From the IMG/VR virus record IMGVR_UViG_2585427773_000003: DNA of 64,000 nucleotides. One strand, 5' to 3'. This stretch comes from a virus (taxonomy: Duplodnaviria; Heunggongvirae; Uroviricota; Caudoviricetes). A program made the position numbers and the translations under genes. Below, piece by piece: positions 41 to 62,441 of this stretch; the first letter of the stretch is position 1, and each line of letters opens with the position of its first letter. Below the pieces are notes generated by a model that worked only from the letters and a program-made list of their open reading frames with translations, had not been told where the DNA came from and did not search any database.

Positions 41-97
41 CCTGCTTCCGTATATATTTAATAAGTTACTTATTATTTATATATATACAGAAGCAGG
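41..97. repeat. 57-bp imperfect palindrome, copy 1
   Basis: 8-bp GC-rich inverted arms cctgcttc/gaagcagg flank an AT-rich core with central AATAAGTtACTTATT; near-identical copies at 32891-32945 and 62387-62441. Confidence 0.9.
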
Positions 98-208
98 CAT
101 AACTTGTCGTCTTAGACGCCCAGAAGCTCTACACTTTGAGCCTGTTAAATTGATTAAAAACTTATGTGTAAAATAGAACGCATTAGTCAGTAGCTAAGAG
201 ATGCAATA

Positions 209-976
209 ATGGACGATTTATCGGTATACGCGAGATCATTGGATAAGGCTAAATACTATGTTTACTGTCTCTATGATACAGAAGACAAGATGAAAAGACC
301 GTTTTACATAGGAAAAGGCAAATCGACTCGTTGTCTCGATCACATCAAGTATCCCGATGACTCTCCCAAATCCATGCGGATCAAAGAACTTTTGGCTAAT
401 AAAAAATTAGGCATAGATATACTTCGTCATGGTATGGATGAAACCACAGCCAAACTTGTTGAGGCGACATGCATCGACCTTATGGGGGTCGGAGAGCTTA
501 CGAATAAGGTACGAGGAAGTGGTTCCATGATGGGCAGAATATCACTGGACGCCTACCATCACTTAGTGCTGCAAGAGGAAACTGAAATTGCTCCTGAGCA
601 CGCCGGTCTTGCCTTCCTGCTAAACAGCACCTACAAGTCAGGAATGTCCGCTCTGGCATTATATGAAGCTACGCGTGGCGTATGGGCAAAGGTTCCAAGA
701 GACGAGAATCTCAAATATGCCTACGCTACATATGGTGGGCTGATAATGGAAGTTTATCGGATTGAATGCTGGGTCAAAGCCGGTTCTCAGCAGTACTTTA
801 CAAGGGATATAGCTCTTGGCCCCGACACAAAACGTTATGAATTTGTTGGCAGAATAGCCGATGAGCATATTAGAAAACTGTATGTAGGCAAATTAATCAA
901 GAAACCACCAAGCTACGGTAGCCCTTTTGTGAAGGTTGGGGTGGTTAGGACTGAACATAGTGTTAGCGCGGCATAA
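209..976 (+). CDS. GIY-YIG nuclease domain protein (homing-endonuclease-like), 255 aa
   Basis: N-terminal YYVYCLYD...PFYIGKGK motif typical of GIY-YIG; C-terminal domain unrecognised. Confidence 0.6.
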   Translation: MDDLSVYARSLDKAKYYVYCLYDTEDKMKRPFYIGKGKSTRCLDHIKYPDDSPKSMRIKELLANKKLGIDILRHGMDETTAKLVEATCIDLMGVGELTNKVRGSGSMMGRISLDAYHHLVLQEETEIAPEHAGLAFLLNSTYKSGMSALALYEATRGVWAKVPRDENLKYAYATYGGLIMEVYRIECWVKAGSQQYFTRDIALGPDTKRYEFVGRIADEHIRKLYVGKLIKKPPSYGSPFVKVGVVRTEHSVSAA

Positions 977-1028
977 AGCTGACACTGTAGTTATGCATTG
1001 GCGCAATGTACGCGCCAATGCATGATTT

Positions 1029-1388
1029 TTAACCTTTTTTCATCAACTCTCGTTTGATTTCATCGGTACGCATCGTGACATCGGCAGCTGTGATCGCCTC
1101 GTTAAGTTTCACGATGTCCTCGATTTCCTGCGGTGACTTCTCTGCCAGATGGAAAATGGCTGCGCGAATCACGTCTGAACGGGTGAATTTCTCGAAGCGA
1201 GGGATGAACTTCATCATCTCCAGCAGTTCGAAGTATTCGTCCTCCAGTGACATTGTGCGGCTTTTAATTTTCTCTTTGCCACGAGTCGGGCGTCCCTGTG
1301 GTCTGACTGGTTGGCGCAAAGGAGTTGTGTTCTTAGCCGGTGCATCAGGCTCTTTGCGCTTTGCTAGGTCACCCATTTTCATGGACAT
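1029..1388 (-). CDS. Small partition protein, ParG-like RHH centromere-binding partner of ParA
   Basis: 119 aa, basic disordered N-terminus then predicted strand-helix-helix; start ATG overlaps parA stop (TAATG coupling). Confidence 0.5.
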   Translation of the reverse strand: MSMKMGDLAKRKEPDAPAKNTTPLRQPVRPQGRPTRGKEKIKSRTMSLEDEYFELLEMMKFIPRFEKFTRSDVIRAAIFHLAEKSPQEIEDIVKLNEAITAADVTMRTDEIKRELMKKG

Positions 1389-2056
1389 TATTCTTCTTCC
1401 TCCAGACTCAACAGATAATCTACAAATTCTTCAAACTCGGCTTCCGCCTTTTTGTCGCGCTCGCTACCGGTCATTTCAAAGATAGAGCGACCAGACTCTT
1501 CCGCATCATCATAGACGTTGCGGTTATATAGATTGACTGGCGCAGACTCGATTCCAAACGTCTCAACAATCTCTTTAGCCGCCAGAATGCGAGACACTTG
1601 TGATGGCAAAGCCGGGCACTGGTTCATGACCGCGCGGACCTTCACTTTATCGTTTACATTGCGAACATTGTCGATAATAGGATCGATGTCACGTAAAGAT
1701 TTCAAATCACGACGCTTAGGACGCAGCGGGATAATGATAACGTCAGCCATCAGCATCGCTTGTCGCTGAATTTCGGAGTCGAAGCCACCAGCATCTACCA
1801 CTACAAACTCAGCTCTACCCTGAAGCGATTTTAGGTGCTTAATGATGTCATCCTGAACGTATGCAAAAGGAATCAGCTCAAGGTCTTCGTTCTGTCGACG
1901 GTCTTCACACCAGCTCGTTGTCGTGCGCTGAATATCTATATCGGTAATATAAACCTTCTTCTTCTTTTTGACTTTCAGGCAAACGGCAATTTGCTGGGCA
2001 ACGGTGGATTTGCCAGGCCCGCCCTTTGTGCCGCCAACCACAAAGATCTTGGTCAT
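1388..2056 (-). CDS. parA: ParA-family partition ATPase (small, type Ib-like)
   Basis: Deviant Walker A GGTKGGPGKST near N-terminus, 222 aa; RBS aaggga upstream. Confidence 0.8.
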   Translation of the reverse strand: MTKIFVVGGTKGGPGKSTVAQQIAVCLKVKKKKKVYITDIDIQRTTTSWCEDRRQNEDLELIPFAYVQDDIIKHLKSLQGRAEFVVVDAGGFDSEIQRQAMLMADVIIIPLRPKRRDLKSLRDIDPIIDNVRNVNDKVKVRAVMNQCPALPSQVSRILAAKEIVETFGIESAPVNLYNRNVYDDAEESGRSIFEMTGSERDKKAEAEFEEFVDYLLSLEEEE

Positions 2057-2374
2057 TGGAGAGTTCCCTTTGCGTATATAATTATCGTCTGAAACAACTT
2101 GTTTTCTTATATGTGATATAGCCTAAATGCCTACGGCTGCGGTGTAAAGGTTAAATGGTAGGTTGTGATTAACAATTGGCAAACATAGCTTGTATTTGTC
2201 TGTTGAAAAAAGTAACAATGACATCTATATTACAAGTACGGTGATATGCCGTACACAATTTGATAATGCACACGTAATGGGCTATAGCCTTTTAAAGTAA
2301 TTTTTGAGTCGAAAACTCAGTTTGAACAGAGGAGATTGATGGCCTTCCTACATCACGGCCATCAGGAGGAATAC

Positions 2375-2644
2375 ATGTCAGCACTAAAAAAGCAGCGCAT
2401 CGATTTGAGATTAACCGATGACGATAAAAGCATCATCGAGGAAGCTGCCGCAATGTCTAACCAGAGCATTACTCAGTTTATGGTTAGCAGTGCATCTGAA
2501 CGTGCCGTGAAAGTTATAGAGCAACACCGTAGACTAGTTCTGAATGAAGAATCCTGGAATCTGGTTATGGACGCTATAAGCAATCCTCCGGCACCGAACG
2601 ACAAGCTGAAACGAGCTGCTGATCGTCTGAAAAGCATGGAGTAG
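2375..2644 (+). CDS. ataR: DUF1778 antitoxin (AtaR/TacA-like)
   Basis: MSALKKQRIDLRLTDDDKS...NEESW motif pattern of DUF1778 antitoxins; RBS aggagga; alternative start at 2339. Confidence 0.75.
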   Translation: MSALKKQRIDLRLTDDDKSIIEEAAAMSNQSITQFMVSSASERAVKVIEQHRRLVLNEESWNLVMDAISNPPAPNDKLKRAADRLKSME

Positions 2645-2651
2645 TTTACTC

Positions 2652-3173
2652 GTGAGCAATACAACGATAGAGATTTTCTCTGGAGAGAAAGATTATGATC
2701 TAAACGGTTTTGATTGCGGCGAAGAGTCACTAAACGCCTTTTTAGCCAACCACTTAAAAAGGCAGCATGAGGGAAAAATTCTTCGTGCTTATGTGCTTTG
2801 CACTCAAGAAGAAAGGCCAAAAGTGTTAGGATATTACACTTTGTCAGGTAGTTGTTTTGAAAAGGAGTCCTTACCTTCAAGAAGCAAACAAAAGAAGGTT
2901 CCTTATCGGAATGTTCCAAGTGTTACTTTGGGTAGGCTGGCTTTGGACAAGTCCCTTCAAGGTCAAGGATTTGGCTCAATGCTTGTAACACATGCAATGC
3001 GCGTTGTGTACAATGCATCTCTTGCTGTAGGCATTCATGGACTTTTCGTTGAGGCGTTAAATGACAAAGCCAAGGCGTTTTATAAAAGTTTAGGCTTTAT
3101 CCAGCTGGTTGGTAACAACGAGCGTTCTTTGTTCTATCCTACAAAATCTATCGAAAAATTGTTCGACGAATAA
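2652..3173 (+). CDS. ataT: GNAT acetyltransferase toxin (AtaT/TacT-like tRNA acetyltransferase)
   Basis: GTG start; YDLNGFDCGEE, LGYYTL, SVTLGRLALDKSLQGQGFG motifs as recalled for AtaT-family toxins; 8 nt after antitoxin stop. Confidence 0.75.
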   Translation: MSNTTIEIFSGEKDYDLNGFDCGEESLNAFLANHLKRQHEGKILRAYVLCTQEERPKVLGYYTLSGSCFEKESLPSRSKQKKVPYRNVPSVTLGRLALDKSLQGQGFGSMLVTHAMRVVYNASLAVGIHGLFVEALNDKAKAFYKSLGFIQLVGNNERSLFYPTKSIEKLFDE

Positions 3174-5547: not shown

Positions 5548-8500
5548 TTACATTTTTGCCTTCAGTTCGCGCACTTCCTCGCGCAGCTCTTTGACAGCCT
5601 CGACCAACATGCCGATAACGCCGTTGTAGTTAAGACGCAGACGAGGCTCTCCTGACTGATCGTTATGGTCAACCGTTACCAGTTCAGGCTGAACATTCTG
5701 GACGTCCTGAGCGATGAGGCCGCCAGACTGCTCATACCGGTCACAGACCTGAATCTCGTACAGAACACCTTCGATCCGATCCAGCTTGTCGAGCGCTCGT
5801 TCAATCTTGCGAATATTGCGTTTGCTACGACGGTCAGAGCGGATATAAACGTCATTAAAGCTGCCATTACCGCCACAAACCCAAGTACCATCATTCTGGA
5901 GGTATGCGTTCGCATCCGTGCCGTTTGCGGTACGTGAGTTGTTGATCATGTAAAAACCAAACTGACTGTTTCCCAAGCCACCCAAGAAGAATTTGCGATC
6001 CGCGTGGTCTTGTCTCAACAACGCTTGTGCAGAGCTTGTACTTACAGCGTTCCTCCCGAAGATGACGTTCTGGTTACGCATATCTATCCACGCGCCAGAG
6101 CCGCTGTTGATGGAAAAACGGTTGGCGTAAACCCACGCACTTGACGTGATGTCACCCGTTACACTCAACGGCTTAAGGCTTTGCAGCGTGCTATTAACGA
6201 ACCTAAAAACATGGGCGCTATTGGCGTAAACATCCAGAATGCCATCTCCGTTCTGTTTAAAGCCGGTGTCATTGTCACCCAGAACAATGGAATTACCGCC
6301 AAGAGCACTGGATGTACCGATGCCCAGTGCACCATTCAATTGACCTCCAGATAATGATAACGCCCCAACATCAGCAGCAGTCGGTTTAATGTGCGAACTG
6401 TAAATTACATATACAGTTCCATCTGTCAGGCCTGTTGGTTTATTCGCTGTATAAGTTGGTGATGTATGAATCGTTACGCTGGCGTTACTGGTATAATCCC
6501 ACTGGATATTAACACCTGTGGCGTAATTACCTATTTCTACATAAATGTCATAGGTATCACCGGATGTATTCACCCATGCAAAATTAGTAAATCCAACCGA
6601 GGTCCGTCGCCATAATGCACCAGTAATACCTTTGGGGTTCCCATTTCCTGCACGCAGAACCAGCTCAGAGATGCCTGCTTGCTGCGGGGAGCCAACGTTA
6701 AACCCTGCGCCACCAATCAGGCTTATGTAAACCACGGAACTGGCTTGTGGCATGGTTACAGTTGCCAGCTTGAACCATCCGGCACCACCACTAAAAGACA
6801 TTGTTGCTGAGTTGATCGTGCCTATAGACCTTGGAGTTAGCTCAATGTTTTTAGAACCGTCAAACGACACCCCATTTATAGTTCTAGCGGTTTGTAACTT
6901 GGTCGCTGTCGCTGCATTACCGGTTGTGTTCTGGTTACCAGCAATGTTTACACCCGGCAGGTTGATATTGGCGGAGCCATCGAATGACACGCCGCCTATT
7001 GTGCGTGCTGTTTGCAGTTTTGTTGCAGTTGCAGCATTACCGTTCAAACTACCATTGATGCCGCCAGTAACATTGAGTCCATTACCGATCGTAACAGCAC
7101 CGCTGGTATTATTAATTATAATAGGTCGCAAACCGTTCCATGAACCTAATGTGTCTCCTGATGCTGTTAGCATGAAATATGTGTTCGATCCATCATTACG
7201 GATAAAGAATCCATAGTTGCCATAGGCAATGCGCAGACCATTCGCCGATTTTGAAATAATCTCGCCAGCAGCAGTTAATCCGCCAGTTAACGCTCCTCCA
7301 GAAAGCGATAATGCTCCTACATCAGAAGCTGTTGGTTTGTTTCTAGTGTTATAAGAACGACGCCAGCCTGGCGCATAATCACTCCCATTGTACACATAAA
7401 TAAATTCCGCATTATTAACACCACCATGACCTGATGTTGTTGTCGTTGTAACACGAATAGTGTAGTGGCTTGTTGACTTATTACTAAACACCTCAATCAC
7501 GGAACCAGATAGATCGATCCTACCGCAACCAGTGTCGTCTATATAATTATTGTTGGCGTAAGCCCATGAGCACCGTGCAATCCAATATTTGTTTGAAAAT
7601 GCACCCTGATTATTTAGCCAAGTTATAAATTGAGCAGTCGTAAATGCCGTTCCGTTACCACTATTTAACCATCCAGCGGCAGCGGTTGGCGCGTTTATAT
7701 CAGCCGGCTGAGGCATAAATCCAGTCGTGTAAACCTGCTCCCAACCACTTTCAAAACCATAGCCATCTCTTGAGGAACGGTAGAACAGACCTCCATTTTT
7801 ATAGTGAGCTTTAATTTGAAGCGTACGGCAACTACCTACACCGGTATAAAAGTTGGCAAGAATATAACTTTCGCCTGTTCTAACTACATTGTAAGCACCA
7901 GATTCAGCATTCCACGGCACGCCACCATCAGCATCAGCATATGACCCTGTTGCTCTTCTTGCGAAAGCGGCAACATGCGCGGCGGTTAAAGTAATATCTT
8001 TGGAACCATCAAACTCAACACCAGAAACCCGTCTTGGCGTTTGCAGCTTTGTTGCTGTTAATGCATTACCGTTCAGACTTGCGGACAGTTTGGTTCCAAT
8101 AACCAGTTCGCCGGTTGCGTTATCAATAGAAAACGGTCTTAATGTATTCCAGCCACCATAAACATCACCTTGATTGGTAAGCAGCAGGTGAGTTTTAGCG
8201 CCATCATTACGCCATAATGCACCATACTCCCCACCTATCATTCGAATCTGATTACCACCACGCGCTACAATTTCGTCTGTGGCAAAAAGTTTTTTGCACG
8301 ACAAGTTATCGTTAACGATTAACGAATTAGACTCATAAAAACCACGCCCACTCTTAAAATCAAGGATAACGTCCGCCGCGATACATTCAGTCGCCGGATT
8401 TGTTGCCCCAAACTTATAGGTCGTATCATTAACAACGAGATCAGCACCAGGTGCGGATATTGACAGGCCATCTTCGATAAACGCAAAAACAGGGAAAGCT

Positions 8501-10401
8501 GCGCCATCAACATAGAACACAGAGCGCAAATCATCGCCCTTATTACTCATCATTATTGAGTGGATGGCTCGTTCATTGTTTTGATATTGCCAGAACATTC
8601 CATAAGCATAACGCCCCCTGTCAGTCCAGCCGCCAGGCATAACAAATCCGTTAAACTCGCAGTTATTCATCGGATCGCCTGCGGTTCGCGTTGCCGTGGT
8701 GATAATGACCCTTGATGCCAGTTCGCTTACTGAGCCAGCAGAACGCATAACAACAACAGGGTAATATTTTCCAGATGTTGCACCTGCAGGAGCGTTAACC
8801 CGCACATAACGCATACCACGCTTATCAGCAAAGTCTGTTTTACTGACCGCGTTAATGTTGTTCAGGAAGCGTCCCTTATCGGGTATATCAGCGCCGTTCT
8901 GGTCTTTCTGCAGACGTTTCTCTGCATTGTCATAGGCTGATTTTACTGCCTTTGGCGTTGCCGCCAGCGTTTCAGACGTACTGTTGGTCGCACTGCTGAG
9001 CTGTACTATCCCCTTTTTCGTCGTGCTCGCATCCTCAAGCGCCACGGCGGATGCAATATCCTCTGCCCGTTTTGCCGCTGTCTCGGCGCGCGTTGCCGCG
9101 GATTCCGCCGTACTTTTGCTCTGTGCTGCCGCCGTCGCACTGCCAGCTGCCTCTGTCGCCTTCGTGGATGCTGTCGTGGCGCTGCCCTTCGCTGCGGACG
9201 CTTGTCTGGTCGCCTCATCTTTTGAAGCAGACGCAGATGATGCCGATGACGCCGCCGAACTGGCGGACGATGCGGCAGCCGTTTTTGAGGATTCTGCGCT
9301 GGTTTCCGACGCTTTCGCGTTCGTCTCGGATGTCTTCGCTGCGGAAGCAGACCTCGCTGCTGCGCTGGCCTGTTCAGTGGCTTCGCCAGCCTTCGTTGTG
9401 GCTGTTGAAGCAGACGATGCGGCACTTTCTGCCGATTTTCCGGCGGCGGTGGCACTGGCTGAGGCCTGCCCGGCACTTGTTGACGCGGCACTGGCAGACG
9501 ACGCAGCCGCTGTTTTTGAGCCTGCCGCAGCCGAGGCGCTCTGTCCCGCTGCCGTTTCAGAAGACCTGGCGTTTGTCTCAGACGTCTTTGCCGCCTTCGC
9601 GGAATTGCCTGCCGCCGTTGCCGAGGAAGCGGCACTACTGGCGCTCGAGGCTGCGTTAGTTTCTGATGATTTCGCTGCCTCTTTTGAGGCCGCCGCATCC
9701 CGGGCTGAGGTGGCAGCTTCTGACGCTTTCGTGGTCGCGGTGGATGCAGAAGTGGCTGCAGATTTTTGTGACGCTGCAGCATTCGTTTCAGACGTTTTCG
9801 CGGCACCGGCACTGGTGGCCGCCGCGCTTTTTGAGGACTCTGCAGCGGATGCACTTTGAGACGCTTGAGAGGCTTTTTCTCCAGCGGTATTGGCGCTTTC
9901 TGCTGCTGCGGCAGCACTGGCCGCCGCCTCACGAGCTTTGTCGCCAGCAGCGTCAATCGCGTCGGTGTTATTTTTATACCACTCAACGTTTTCGTTGTGC
10001 TCGTTGACAATCTGTATCAGCGGCTTAACGGTCACTTCTGTACCGTCTTCACGCTCGATTGTCACCTCATCCAGCGCAGTCAACCAACTGCGCATGGACT
10101 TGGAATCAGCCGACATACGCGACATTAGCGCAGTAAAGCGCGCGCTAAACTGTGTTAAGTCGCCTTCATAGGTCGTAATGATTCGGCACGGAACCTCAGA
10201 CTGAGTTTCGCCGGTATAAGGTTCTGAGAGAACAATATTCGTATCGCTTATTACGCGCTTGATCTCATACAGCTTATTGTCGGGGCCAATGACGATCATC
10301 CCCGGCAACACACCATTAGCTGTTACGTTCCAGGCTGTCCCTGCCCCAACCAGAGTATTGCTACCCTGTGTAAATGTGATAGTACCTTCCCTGTACCACA
10401 T
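5548..10401 (-). CDS. Long tail fiber protein with C-terminal intramolecular chaperone (peptidase S74-like) domain
   Basis: 1617 aa; Ala/Ser-rich low-complexity coiled segment; C-terminal SDRRSKRNI...IAQDVQ...VEAVKELREEV pattern typical of self-cleaving chaperone domains. Confidence 0.75.
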   Translation of the reverse strand: MWYREGTITFTQGSNTLVGAGTAWNVTANGVLPGMIVIGPDNKLYEIKRVISDTNIVLSEPYTGETQSEVPCRIITTYEGDLTQFSARFTALMSRMSADSKSMRSWLTALDEVTIEREDGTEVTVKPLIQIVNEHNENVEWYKNNTDAIDAAGDKAREAAASAAAAAESANTAGEKASQASQSASAAESSKSAAATSAGAAKTSETNAAASQKSAATSASTATTKASEAATSARDAAASKEAAKSSETNAASSASSAASSATAAGNSAKAAKTSETNARSSETAAGQSASAAAGSKTAAASSASAASTSAGQASASATAAGKSAESAASSASTATTKAGEATEQASAAARSASAAKTSETNAKASETSAESSKTAAASSASSAASSASSASASKDEATRQASAAKGSATTASTKATEAAGSATAAAQSKSTAESAATRAETAAKRAEDIASAVALEDASTTKKGIVQLSSATNSTSETLAATPKAVKSAYDNAEKRLQKDQNGADIPDKGRFLNNINAVSKTDFADKRGMRYVRVNAPAGATSGKYYPVVVMRSAGSVSELASRVIITTATRTAGDPMNNCEFNGFVMPGGWTDRGRYAYGMFWQYQNNERAIHSIMMSNKGDDLRSVFYVDGAAFPVFAFIEDGLSISAPGADLVVNDTTYKFGATNPATECIAADVILDFKSGRGFYESNSLIVNDNLSCKKLFATDEIVARGGNQIRMIGGEYGALWRNDGAKTHLLLTNQGDVYGGWNTLRPFSIDNATGELVIGTKLSASLNGNALTATKLQTPRRVSGVEFDGSKDITLTAAHVAAFARRATGSYADADGGVPWNAESGAYNVVRTGESYILANFYTGVGSCRTLQIKAHYKNGGLFYRSSRDGYGFESGWEQVYTTGFMPQPADINAPTAAAGWLNSGNGTAFTTAQFITWLNNQGAFSNKYWIARCSWAYANNNYIDDTGCGRIDLSGSVIEVFSNKSTSHYTIRVTTTTTSGHGGVNNAEFIYVYNGSDYAPGWRRSYNTRNKPTASDVGALSLSGGALTGGLTAAGEIISKSANGLRIAYGNYGFFIRNDGSNTYFMLTASGDTLGSWNGLRPIIINNTSGAVTIGNGLNVTGGINGSLNGNAATATKLQTARTIGGVSFDGSANINLPGVNIAGNQNTTGNAATATKLQTARTINGVSFDGSKNIELTPRSIGTINSATMSFSGGAGWFKLATVTMPQASSVVYISLIGGAGFNVGSPQQAGISELVLRAGNGNPKGITGALWRRTSVGFTNFAWVNTSGDTYDIYVEIGNYATGVNIQWDYTSNASVTIHTSPTYTANKPTGLTDGTVYVIYSSHIKPTAADVGALSLSGGQLNGALGIGTSSALGGNSIVLGDNDTGFKQNGDGILDVYANSAHVFRFVNSTLQSLKPLSVTGDITSSAWVYANRFSINSGSGAWIDMRNQNVIFGRNAVSTSSAQALLRQDHADRKFFLGGLGNSQFGFYMINNSRTANGTDANAYLQNDGTWVCGGNGSFNDVYIRSDRRSKRNIRKIERALDKLDRIEGVLYEIQVCDRYEQSGGLIAQDVQNVQPELVTVDHNDQSGEPRLRLNYNGVIGMLVEAVKELREEVRELKAKM

Positions 10402-32890: not shown

Positions 32891-32945
32891 CCTGCTTCCG
32901 TATATATTTAATAAGTTACTTATTATTTATATATACAGAAGCAGG
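32891..32945. repeat. 55-bp imperfect palindrome, copy 2
   Basis: Near-identical to copy 1; lies 117 bp upstream of terS start. Confidence 0.9.
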
Positions 32946-62386: not shown

Positions 62387-62441
62387 CCTGCTTCCGTATA
62401 TTAATAATTAATATGTAGTTATTTATATATACAGAAGCAGG
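62387..62441. repeat. 55-bp imperfect palindrome, copy 3 (variant core)
   Basis: Same cctgcttccgtata...atatacagaagcagg arms as copies 1 and 2, with altered central AT-rich core. Confidence 0.85.

Follow-up and report, generated by a model that had tools for sequence, protein, structure and literature searches.

What is a free-standing GIY-YIG nuclease doing on a phage-plasmid? IMGVR_UViG_2585427773_000003, a stretch of 64,000 nucleotides of Caudoviricetes DNA (hereafter the window, meaning the whole stretch that was analysed), encodes a 255-aa protein of this kind between a large palindrome (41-97) and a partition (par) operon on the opposite strand (1029..2056). A sequence-only reading had placed the gene correctly between these two landmarks, had described its C-terminal domain as unrecognised, and had considered that its size and N-terminal motif fit a homing endonuclease while leaving room for a defence or anti-defence role. 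We conclude, with a probability of roughly 0.85, that the gene encodes a nuclease of the PD-T4-3/CMoRE family, that is, a single-protein anti-phage defence that cuts DNA containing modified bases, and that it is carried as swappable cargo of the phage-plasmid.

Both domains of the window protein are homologous to PD-T4-3/CMoRE. The PADLOC PD-T4-3 profile (PDLC04031) matched aa 11-231 over profile positions 11-238 of 256 (E = 1.6e-23, 81.6 bits), the C-terminal 127 aa alone matched the same profile (E = 8.8e-9), and the copy of the nuclease in a relative (L006) gave an identical PADLOC PD-T4-3 result. A phmmer search of PDB sequences matched only two distinct sequences, both of them PD-T4-3 (9u7u/9u7z and 9u75/9u8d), with E-values of 1.9e-15 (9u7u_A) and 3.2e-15 and an alignment spanning residues 12-230. 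Foldseek matched the full predicted model to 9u75 (E = 4e-12, probability 1.0), and the next structural matches after CMoRE were UvrC GIY-YIG domains. The full-length TM-score against CMoRE was low (0.38, root-mean-square deviation 16 Å), as a different relative orientation of the two domains about their flexible linker would predict; the linker lacks electron density in CMoRE and is a low-confidence region in the model of the window protein. The C-terminal domain was therefore modelled and searched separately.

General domain databases see less of the protein. The Pfam family LEM-3_GIY-YIG (PF22945) matched aa 32-104 with 30.1 bits, above its cut-off of 27, which bears out the earlier GIY-YIG call. 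The C-terminal half (aa 108-255) gave no match in Pfam (E up to 10) or in NCBIfam (E up to 1), so its description as unrecognised holds for these two databases; it fails for PADLOC and for the PDB once the structures of 2026 are included. In PHROGs the protein belongs over its full length to phrog_5356, a family of unknown function (E = 2e-99). A profile built from the window protein's subfamily matched 3,133 representatives of 50%-identity clusters, 1,324 of them at E<=1e-10. The family is a continuum in which most representatives are 30-40% identical to both the window protein and CMoRE. The C-terminal sensor domain is duplicated in some members of the family, as in representatives P0127, P0216 and P0233 (377-381 aa); in P0127 and P0216, BLAST matched CMoRE residues 117-227 or 126-227 again at approximately 257-364. 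These are probably the 'type II-IV' architectures of PMC12923530.

As cited in PMC12923530, Vassallo et al. (2022) first found PD-T4-3, a single-gene anti-phage system, in E. coli ECOR68. Liu et al. (Nat Commun 2026, PMC12923530) renamed it CMoRE and described it as a modification-dependent type IV restriction enzyme, using proteins from E. coli O157:H7 and APEC O1 (PDB 9U75, 9U8D, 9U7U and 9U7Z). According to that study, CMoRE protects against T2, T4 and T6 through direct defence and not abortive infection, binds and degrades DNA containing 5-hydroxymethylcytosine (5hmC) or glucosyl-5hmC and not DNA containing cytosine or 5-methylcytosine (5mC), and cuts at CN11/N9G to leave 2-nt 3' overhangs. 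The enzyme is a tetramer, a dimer of dimers with a hydrophobic intra-dimer interface at V92/L96. Its N-terminal GIY-YIG domain bears a 'GIYxY-YIG' motif (Y17, Y19, Y31), an acidic alpha2-alpha3 loop autoinhibits the enzyme, and the C-terminal domain binds 5-hydroxymethyl-dCTP (PMC12923530). Rodriguez-Rodriguez et al. (2025, PMC12366544) showed that PD-T4-3Capno, a Capnocytophaga protein sharing 48% identity with PD-T4-3, degrades DNA of T4 and of Mu and not the unmodified DNA of T4-GT7. Loss of PD-T4-3 by deletion from NILS69, a clinical isolate, conferred sensitivity to two Tevenvirinae phages (10.1101/2024.12.20.629700).

We compared the window protein with CMoRE residue by residue and read conservation from an alignment of 123 family sequences, mainly top matches to the subfamily's own profile and including two CMoRE sequences. 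Index numbers in the PDB chains equal the residue numbers of the CMoRE paper plus 5, an offset that was checked on Y17, Y19, Y31, R80, V92, L96 and Y127. CMoRE Y17, Y19 and Y31 correspond to Y17, Y19 and Y33 of the window protein and are nearly invariant in the family, as is the glycine of the YIG motif, G35 (119/123 in each case). The conserved arginine, glutamate and asparagine of CMoRE correspond to R41, E85 and N99 (119-121/123), and its aligned histidine (in AHMR) to H45 (117/123). Within the sensor domain, W159, W188, F212 and G214 are nearly invariant, while Y183 and R209 are the majority residues (101/123 and 100/123, respectively). All catalytic and family-invariant residues of the window protein are present, and its active site is intact. 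At the intra-dimer interface, V92 of CMoRE corresponds to V84, a position that is mostly valine or isoleucine in the family, and L96 to C88, which is occupied by small hydrophobic residues (A, V, C, L or I).

Several observations weigh against carrying the CMoRE mechanism over to the window protein unchanged. Overall identity to the characterised enzymes is just 31-33% (nuclease domain 38-41%, sensor domain 29-30%), and we found no assayed member of the subfamily. The alpha2-alpha3 loop occupies the position of the acidic autoinhibitory lid, which in CMoRE has 20 residues with DDDE or DDDD; the window loop is 8 residues shorter, has a net charge of +1 and contains no four-residue acidic run, and removal of the acidic run made CMoRE toxic and less specific (PMC12923530). 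In the sensor domain, a TYKSGMS segment is strictly conserved in the subfamily where CMoRE has a shorter RSxKD, and the ligand could therefore differ. The contact of CMoRE to the 5hmC hydroxyl is made by Y127 via its main-chain oxygen (PMC12923530), a residue that aligns with L121 of the window protein in a poorly aligned linker; as the contact is a main-chain one and the linker aligns poorly, the 5hmC binding site is beyond a check by sequence. A consensus scan of positions 1-1100 found no sigma-70 promoter upstream of the gene.

In one alternative, family and defence role are the same and the specificity is not. The window protein could recognise other modifications, for example Mu-type modified adenines, arabinosyl-hydroxymethylcytosine or 7-deazaguanines, or it could be less dependent on modification without the acidic lid. 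The divergence of the sensor domain, the invariant TYKSGMS segment together with the short, non-acidic loop of the subfamily, and the activity of PD-T4-3Capno on Mu as well as T4 DNA all point in this direction, but the short loop is no oddity: 12 residues is the commonest length in the alignment (81/123, in a sample made up mainly of top matches to the subfamily profile), and in a metagenomic screen the annotated family was almost always tied to restriction of T4 but not T4-GT7 (PMC12366544). We regard this alternative as unlikely, although it retains appreciable weight. Acidic runs of at least three residues occur in the loop of just 6 of the 123 sampled members, the two CMoRE sequences included; judged from this sample, the long acidic lid therefore seems to belong to the E. 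coli CMoRE subclade and not to be family-wide. PMC12923530 states that 'most' members have an inserted, negatively charged alpha2-alpha3 loop in which four acidic residues follow one another.

A bolder form of this idea, which we offer tentatively and think improbable as it stands, is that the subfamily of approximately 246 aa with the short loop and the TYKSGMS segment is a functionally distinct branch of the CMoRE family that recognises another hypermodification, keeps self-DNA safe by means other than an acidic lid, and reads bases with a very divergent PUA-like (EVE/YTH/ASCH-type) base-flipping domain. The CMoRE sensor domain was published as a fold without homologues. The separately modelled C-terminal domain of the window protein showed similarities to EVE domains (2ar1, 2kku, 2gbs, 1wmm, and THYN1 with 5mC DNA, 5j3e), an ASCH domain (5guq), the YTH domains of Mmi1, YTHDC1 and CPSF30, and the modification-dependent endonuclease VcaM4I (6yex). 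Foldseek returned the same YTH and VcaM4I matches for this predicted model at probabilities of <=0.13, which are non-significant. Since the matches are consistent in kind, they weakly suggest that the CMoRE-type sensor may be a very divergent PUA-like reader. Type IV restriction enzymes with PUA-like readers (EVE/YTH/ASCH/SRA), such as VcaM4I, McrB N-terminal domains and NhoI, count among the nearest known systems. Specificity and the ancestry of the sensor domain could be approached through the absent acidic lid and the weak PUA-like similarity.

Returning to the PD-T4-3/CMoRE assignment, we infer by analogy, from the E. coli enzymes of solved structure, the activity, the defence role, the oligomeric state and the modification read by the window protein. 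In the lysogen, the protein would be made constitutively and at a low level. Its C-terminal domain would bind a modified base in incoming phage DNA, the likeliest substrates being 5hmC and glucosyl-5hmC, as found in T-even phages; other modifications are possible because the sensor domain has diverged and the specificity of PD-T4-3Capno is plastic. An oligomeric enzyme would then cut both strands through its N-terminal GIY-YIG domains, whereas unmodified host and plasmid DNA would be spared. In this way the cargo gene may protect the lysogen, and thereby the phage-plasmid itself, from virulent phages with hypermodified DNA.

The setting of the gene is that of exchangeable cargo. As a phage-plasmid, the window is SSU5-like: identity is 99.3% with 'Escherichia phage CMS-2020a' (CP053388) over the first 3 kb and 98.6% with PhiR41_1 over bases 1-2163, and its par genes are 86% identical to those of Salmonella phage SSU5 and approximately 80% identical to those of Klebsiella phage-plasmids. 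A three-way DNA alignment showed the same cassette in PhiR41_1 and a different one in the relative Cyrano. Homology to Cyrano stops just after the palindrome and resumes at approximately 1029, at the stop codon of the par-partner gene, so that approximately 930 bp between the two are replaced and not deleted; in relatives without the nuclease gene, DNA matches begin at window position 1031. The cassette consists of one gene and a terminator, has no conserved partner gene, and has a GC content of 43.5%, compared with 47.0% for the whole window. A 99%-identical cassette was found on a backbone whose par operon is just 86% identical to that of the window, which argues that the cassette has been transferred from one lineage to another, presumably through recombination within the conserved sequences on either side.

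Other relatives carry other genes in this slot, among them PD-T7-5 and the PADLOC candidate system PDC-S31 (Table). With a PD-T4-3-like gene in the window, the slot between palindrome and par operon behaves as a hotspot for defence cargo. The uncharacterised slot genes, which span 136-351 aa (SSU5_035 and SSU5_036, the 351-aa gene of pHCM2 and the 136-aa and 244-aa genes of the Klebsiella element), gave no PADLOC matches and can reasonably be viewed as candidate new defence genes.

The same setting bears on two further explanations. In the first, which we consider very improbable, the protein would serve in anti-defence or in competition between elements, for example by degrading rival plasmids or phage-plasmids, or the DNA of the host in the lytic cycle, and would not protect the lysogen. 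A nuclease on a mobile element would suit such a role and the reduced acidic lid might relax its specificity, but no anti-defence family was matched, known and candidate defence genes occupy the slot in relatives, and PD-T4-3 left a plasmid's vertical transmission unaffected in NILS69 (10.1101/2024.12.20.629700). Of the two roles that had been left open at the outset, defence is backed by the PD-T4-3/CMoRE homology of both domains, and nothing points to anti-defence. The last and least credible explanation, a free-standing homing endonuclease that spreads by cutting alleles without the gene and being copied in during repair, would account for the GIY-YIG domain, the length of approximately 250 aa, the gene's presence or absence among related elements and the near-identical cassette on diverged backbones, yet the protein has no NUMOD, IENR1, helix-turn-helix or zinc-finger region in aa 108-255 and instead has the fold of the CMoRE sensor, PHROG 314 ('homing endonuclease') matched just the N-terminal part at E = 0.28, no empty target site was found in relatives, where unrelated cargo genes fill the slot and 98-1028 is replaced and not inserted, and chromosomal homologues in Providencia and Shewanella are solitary among housekeeping genes. 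The homing-endonuclease reading is accordingly rejected as unsupported, and the presence/absence polymorphism proposed as a check on it does exist, as cassette replacement in a cargo hotspot and not as homing.

The open reading frame (ORF) is a real gene and not a chance one, given that the protein cluster drawn at 99% identity contains 372 member sequences and that 411 homologues were found at E<=1e-3, most of them 245-255 aa long and aligned over 93-100% of the query. Its ATG is preceded, 8 nt upstream, by a Shine-Dalgarno-like motif (AAGAG). The possibility of a decayed pseudogene was rejected, since 136 plasmids carry the gene intact at an identity of 95% or more. The hairpin downstream of the gene is likely its intrinsic terminator and, falling within the stretch that Cyrano lacks, is part of the cassette; it was found by repeat search and RNA folding only and was not reported by a consensus terminator scan of 1-1100. 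Coordinates of these and neighbouring features are collected in the Table.

Table. Features of the nuclease locus in the window, and occupants of the corresponding slot in relatives (no window coordinates).
Feature	Coordinates	Strand	Details
Imperfect AT-rich palindrome, 57 bp, with GC clamps	41..97	.	Inverted repeat; DNA hairpin z -5.3; left edge of slot
Exchangeable cargo cassette (leader, nuclease gene, terminator)	98..1028	.	Left edge palindrome, right edge par-partner stop codon
PD-T4-3/CMoRE-family nuclease coding sequence	209..976	+	ATG start, 255 aa, stop codon included; ORF list
GIY-YIG nuclease domain	242..520	+	Y17-x-Y19 ... Y33-I-G35, catalytic R41, H45, E85, N99; Pfam and CMoRE alignment
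alpha2-alpha3 loop, aa 46-57, IKYPDDSPKSMR	344..379	+	12 residues, 2 acidic and 3 basic; CMoRE alignment
C-terminal domain, approximately aa 126-244	584..940	+	Homologous to CMoRE modified-base-sensing domain
Hairpin with a 16-bp stem and a plus-strand TTTTT after it	989..1027	+	Inverted repeat; RNA folding free energy -25.1 kcal/mol, z -4.94
ParA partner ORF, 119 aa	1029..1388	-	ATGA overlap with parA at 1388 (translational coupling)
parA	1388..2056	-	Pfam MipZ, AAA_31, CbiA and ParA matches
Slot in Cyrano			DUF2971 protein with a match to PDC-S31, a candidate system in PADLOC (E = 1e-40)
Slot in E. coli plasmid pUTAK-6-1			PD-T7-5 (E = 4e-139) and DUF2971
Slot in pHCM2			DUF2971 and a 351-aa unknown
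Slot in SSU5			DUF2971/PDC-S31 (SSU5_037) and two unknowns (SSU5_035, SSU5_036)
Slot in Klebsiella element			Two unknowns, 136 aa and 244 aa

The nuclease gene is convergent with the par operon, which consists of parA and a small partner gene. The partner ORF has no Pfam match and only a marginal PADLOC match (HEC-02B, E = 0.006); it is labelled 'RelE/ParE putative toxin' in the Cyrano record. Its place beside parA points to a centromere-binding partner for ParA and casts doubt on the toxin label. At the left edge of the slot, the palindrome is conserved in position in Cyrano, PhiR41_1, SSU5, pHCM2 and an Enterobacter phage-plasmid; it might serve as a terminator, as an operator or as an anchor for the recombination that exchanges cargo. 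Counted at approximately 55 bp (CTGCTTCCGTATATA...TATATACAGAAGCAG), this palindrome occurs three times in the window (42-96, the copy at the slot edge, 32892-32944 and 62388-62440), with 0.02 copies expected by chance, and every copy is intergenic between minus-strand genes, just 3' of one stop codon and upstream of the next start. A role as the telomere or hairpin end of a linear plasmid was dropped, as relatives are circular SSU5-like elements and the palindrome occupies three intergenic positions.

Beyond the par operon lies a second variable slot, recognised as such because PhiR41_1 and SSU5 lack its toxin-antitoxin pair and carry two different genes in its place. The pair consists of a TacA-like antitoxin gene (2336..2644, plus strand; Pfam TacA1, E = 8.6e-26) and a gene for a GNAT acetyltransferase toxin of the TacT/KacT type (2652..3173, plus strand). 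Further along, a 1,617-aa tail-fibre-like ORF (5548..10401, minus strand) has long Ala/Ser/Thr-rich low-complexity repeats near its N-terminus, and the tail-fibre region is strongly divergent between relatives.

Among PLSDB plasmids, 731 carry a homologous par operon (241/731 in Escherichia), and 136 of the 731 carry the nuclease gene. The gene was found in 107 of 5,426 complete E. coli genomes, every time on a plasmid and never on a chromosome. The Providencia and Shewanella homologues (73-75% and 54-55% identical) are solitary chromosomal genes with unrelated, housekeeping neighbours. A DefenseFinder survey of phage-plasmids (10.1101/2025.09.12.675607) reported PD-T4-3, PD-T7-5, PrrC and restriction-modification systems in E. 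coli and Shigella elements of the SSU5 group. Approximately 2% of complete E. coli genomes carry the nuclease gene on SSU5-like phage-plasmids, and these lysogens are probably resistant to T-even-type phages because of it, which would be relevant to phage therapy and to phage-plasmid ecology. For annotation, the gene is labelled just 'LEM-3-like GIY-YIG domain-containing protein' in RefSeq and 'hypothetical protein' in phage records, although its family has solved structures. The window gene is a diverged member of a family that is already recognised by standard defence-annotation tools, and nothing here alters existing knowledge in kind.

With the free-standing homing endonucleases I-TevI and the T4 Seg proteins, the window protein shares the GIY-YIG catalytic fold and a phage-carried, variably present gene; unlike them, its family has no homing-type DNA-binding region and no empty cognate site, and its members are mostly chromosomal and solitary. 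From CMoRE, beyond the level of identity and the 12- versus 20-residue loop without DDDE/DDDD, it differs in the replacement of interface L96 by C88, a beta1-beta2 loop that is 2 residues longer, the conserved TYKSGMS segment in the sensor, a 9-residue C-terminal tail and its location on a phage-plasmid. PD-T4-3Capno is, like the window protein, a diverged member of the family. It is still a modification-dependent nuclease, which indicates that function has been retained across phyla, and its additional activity on Mu DNA, which contains N6-carbamoylmethyl-adenine, indicates that the specificity of the family is plastic.
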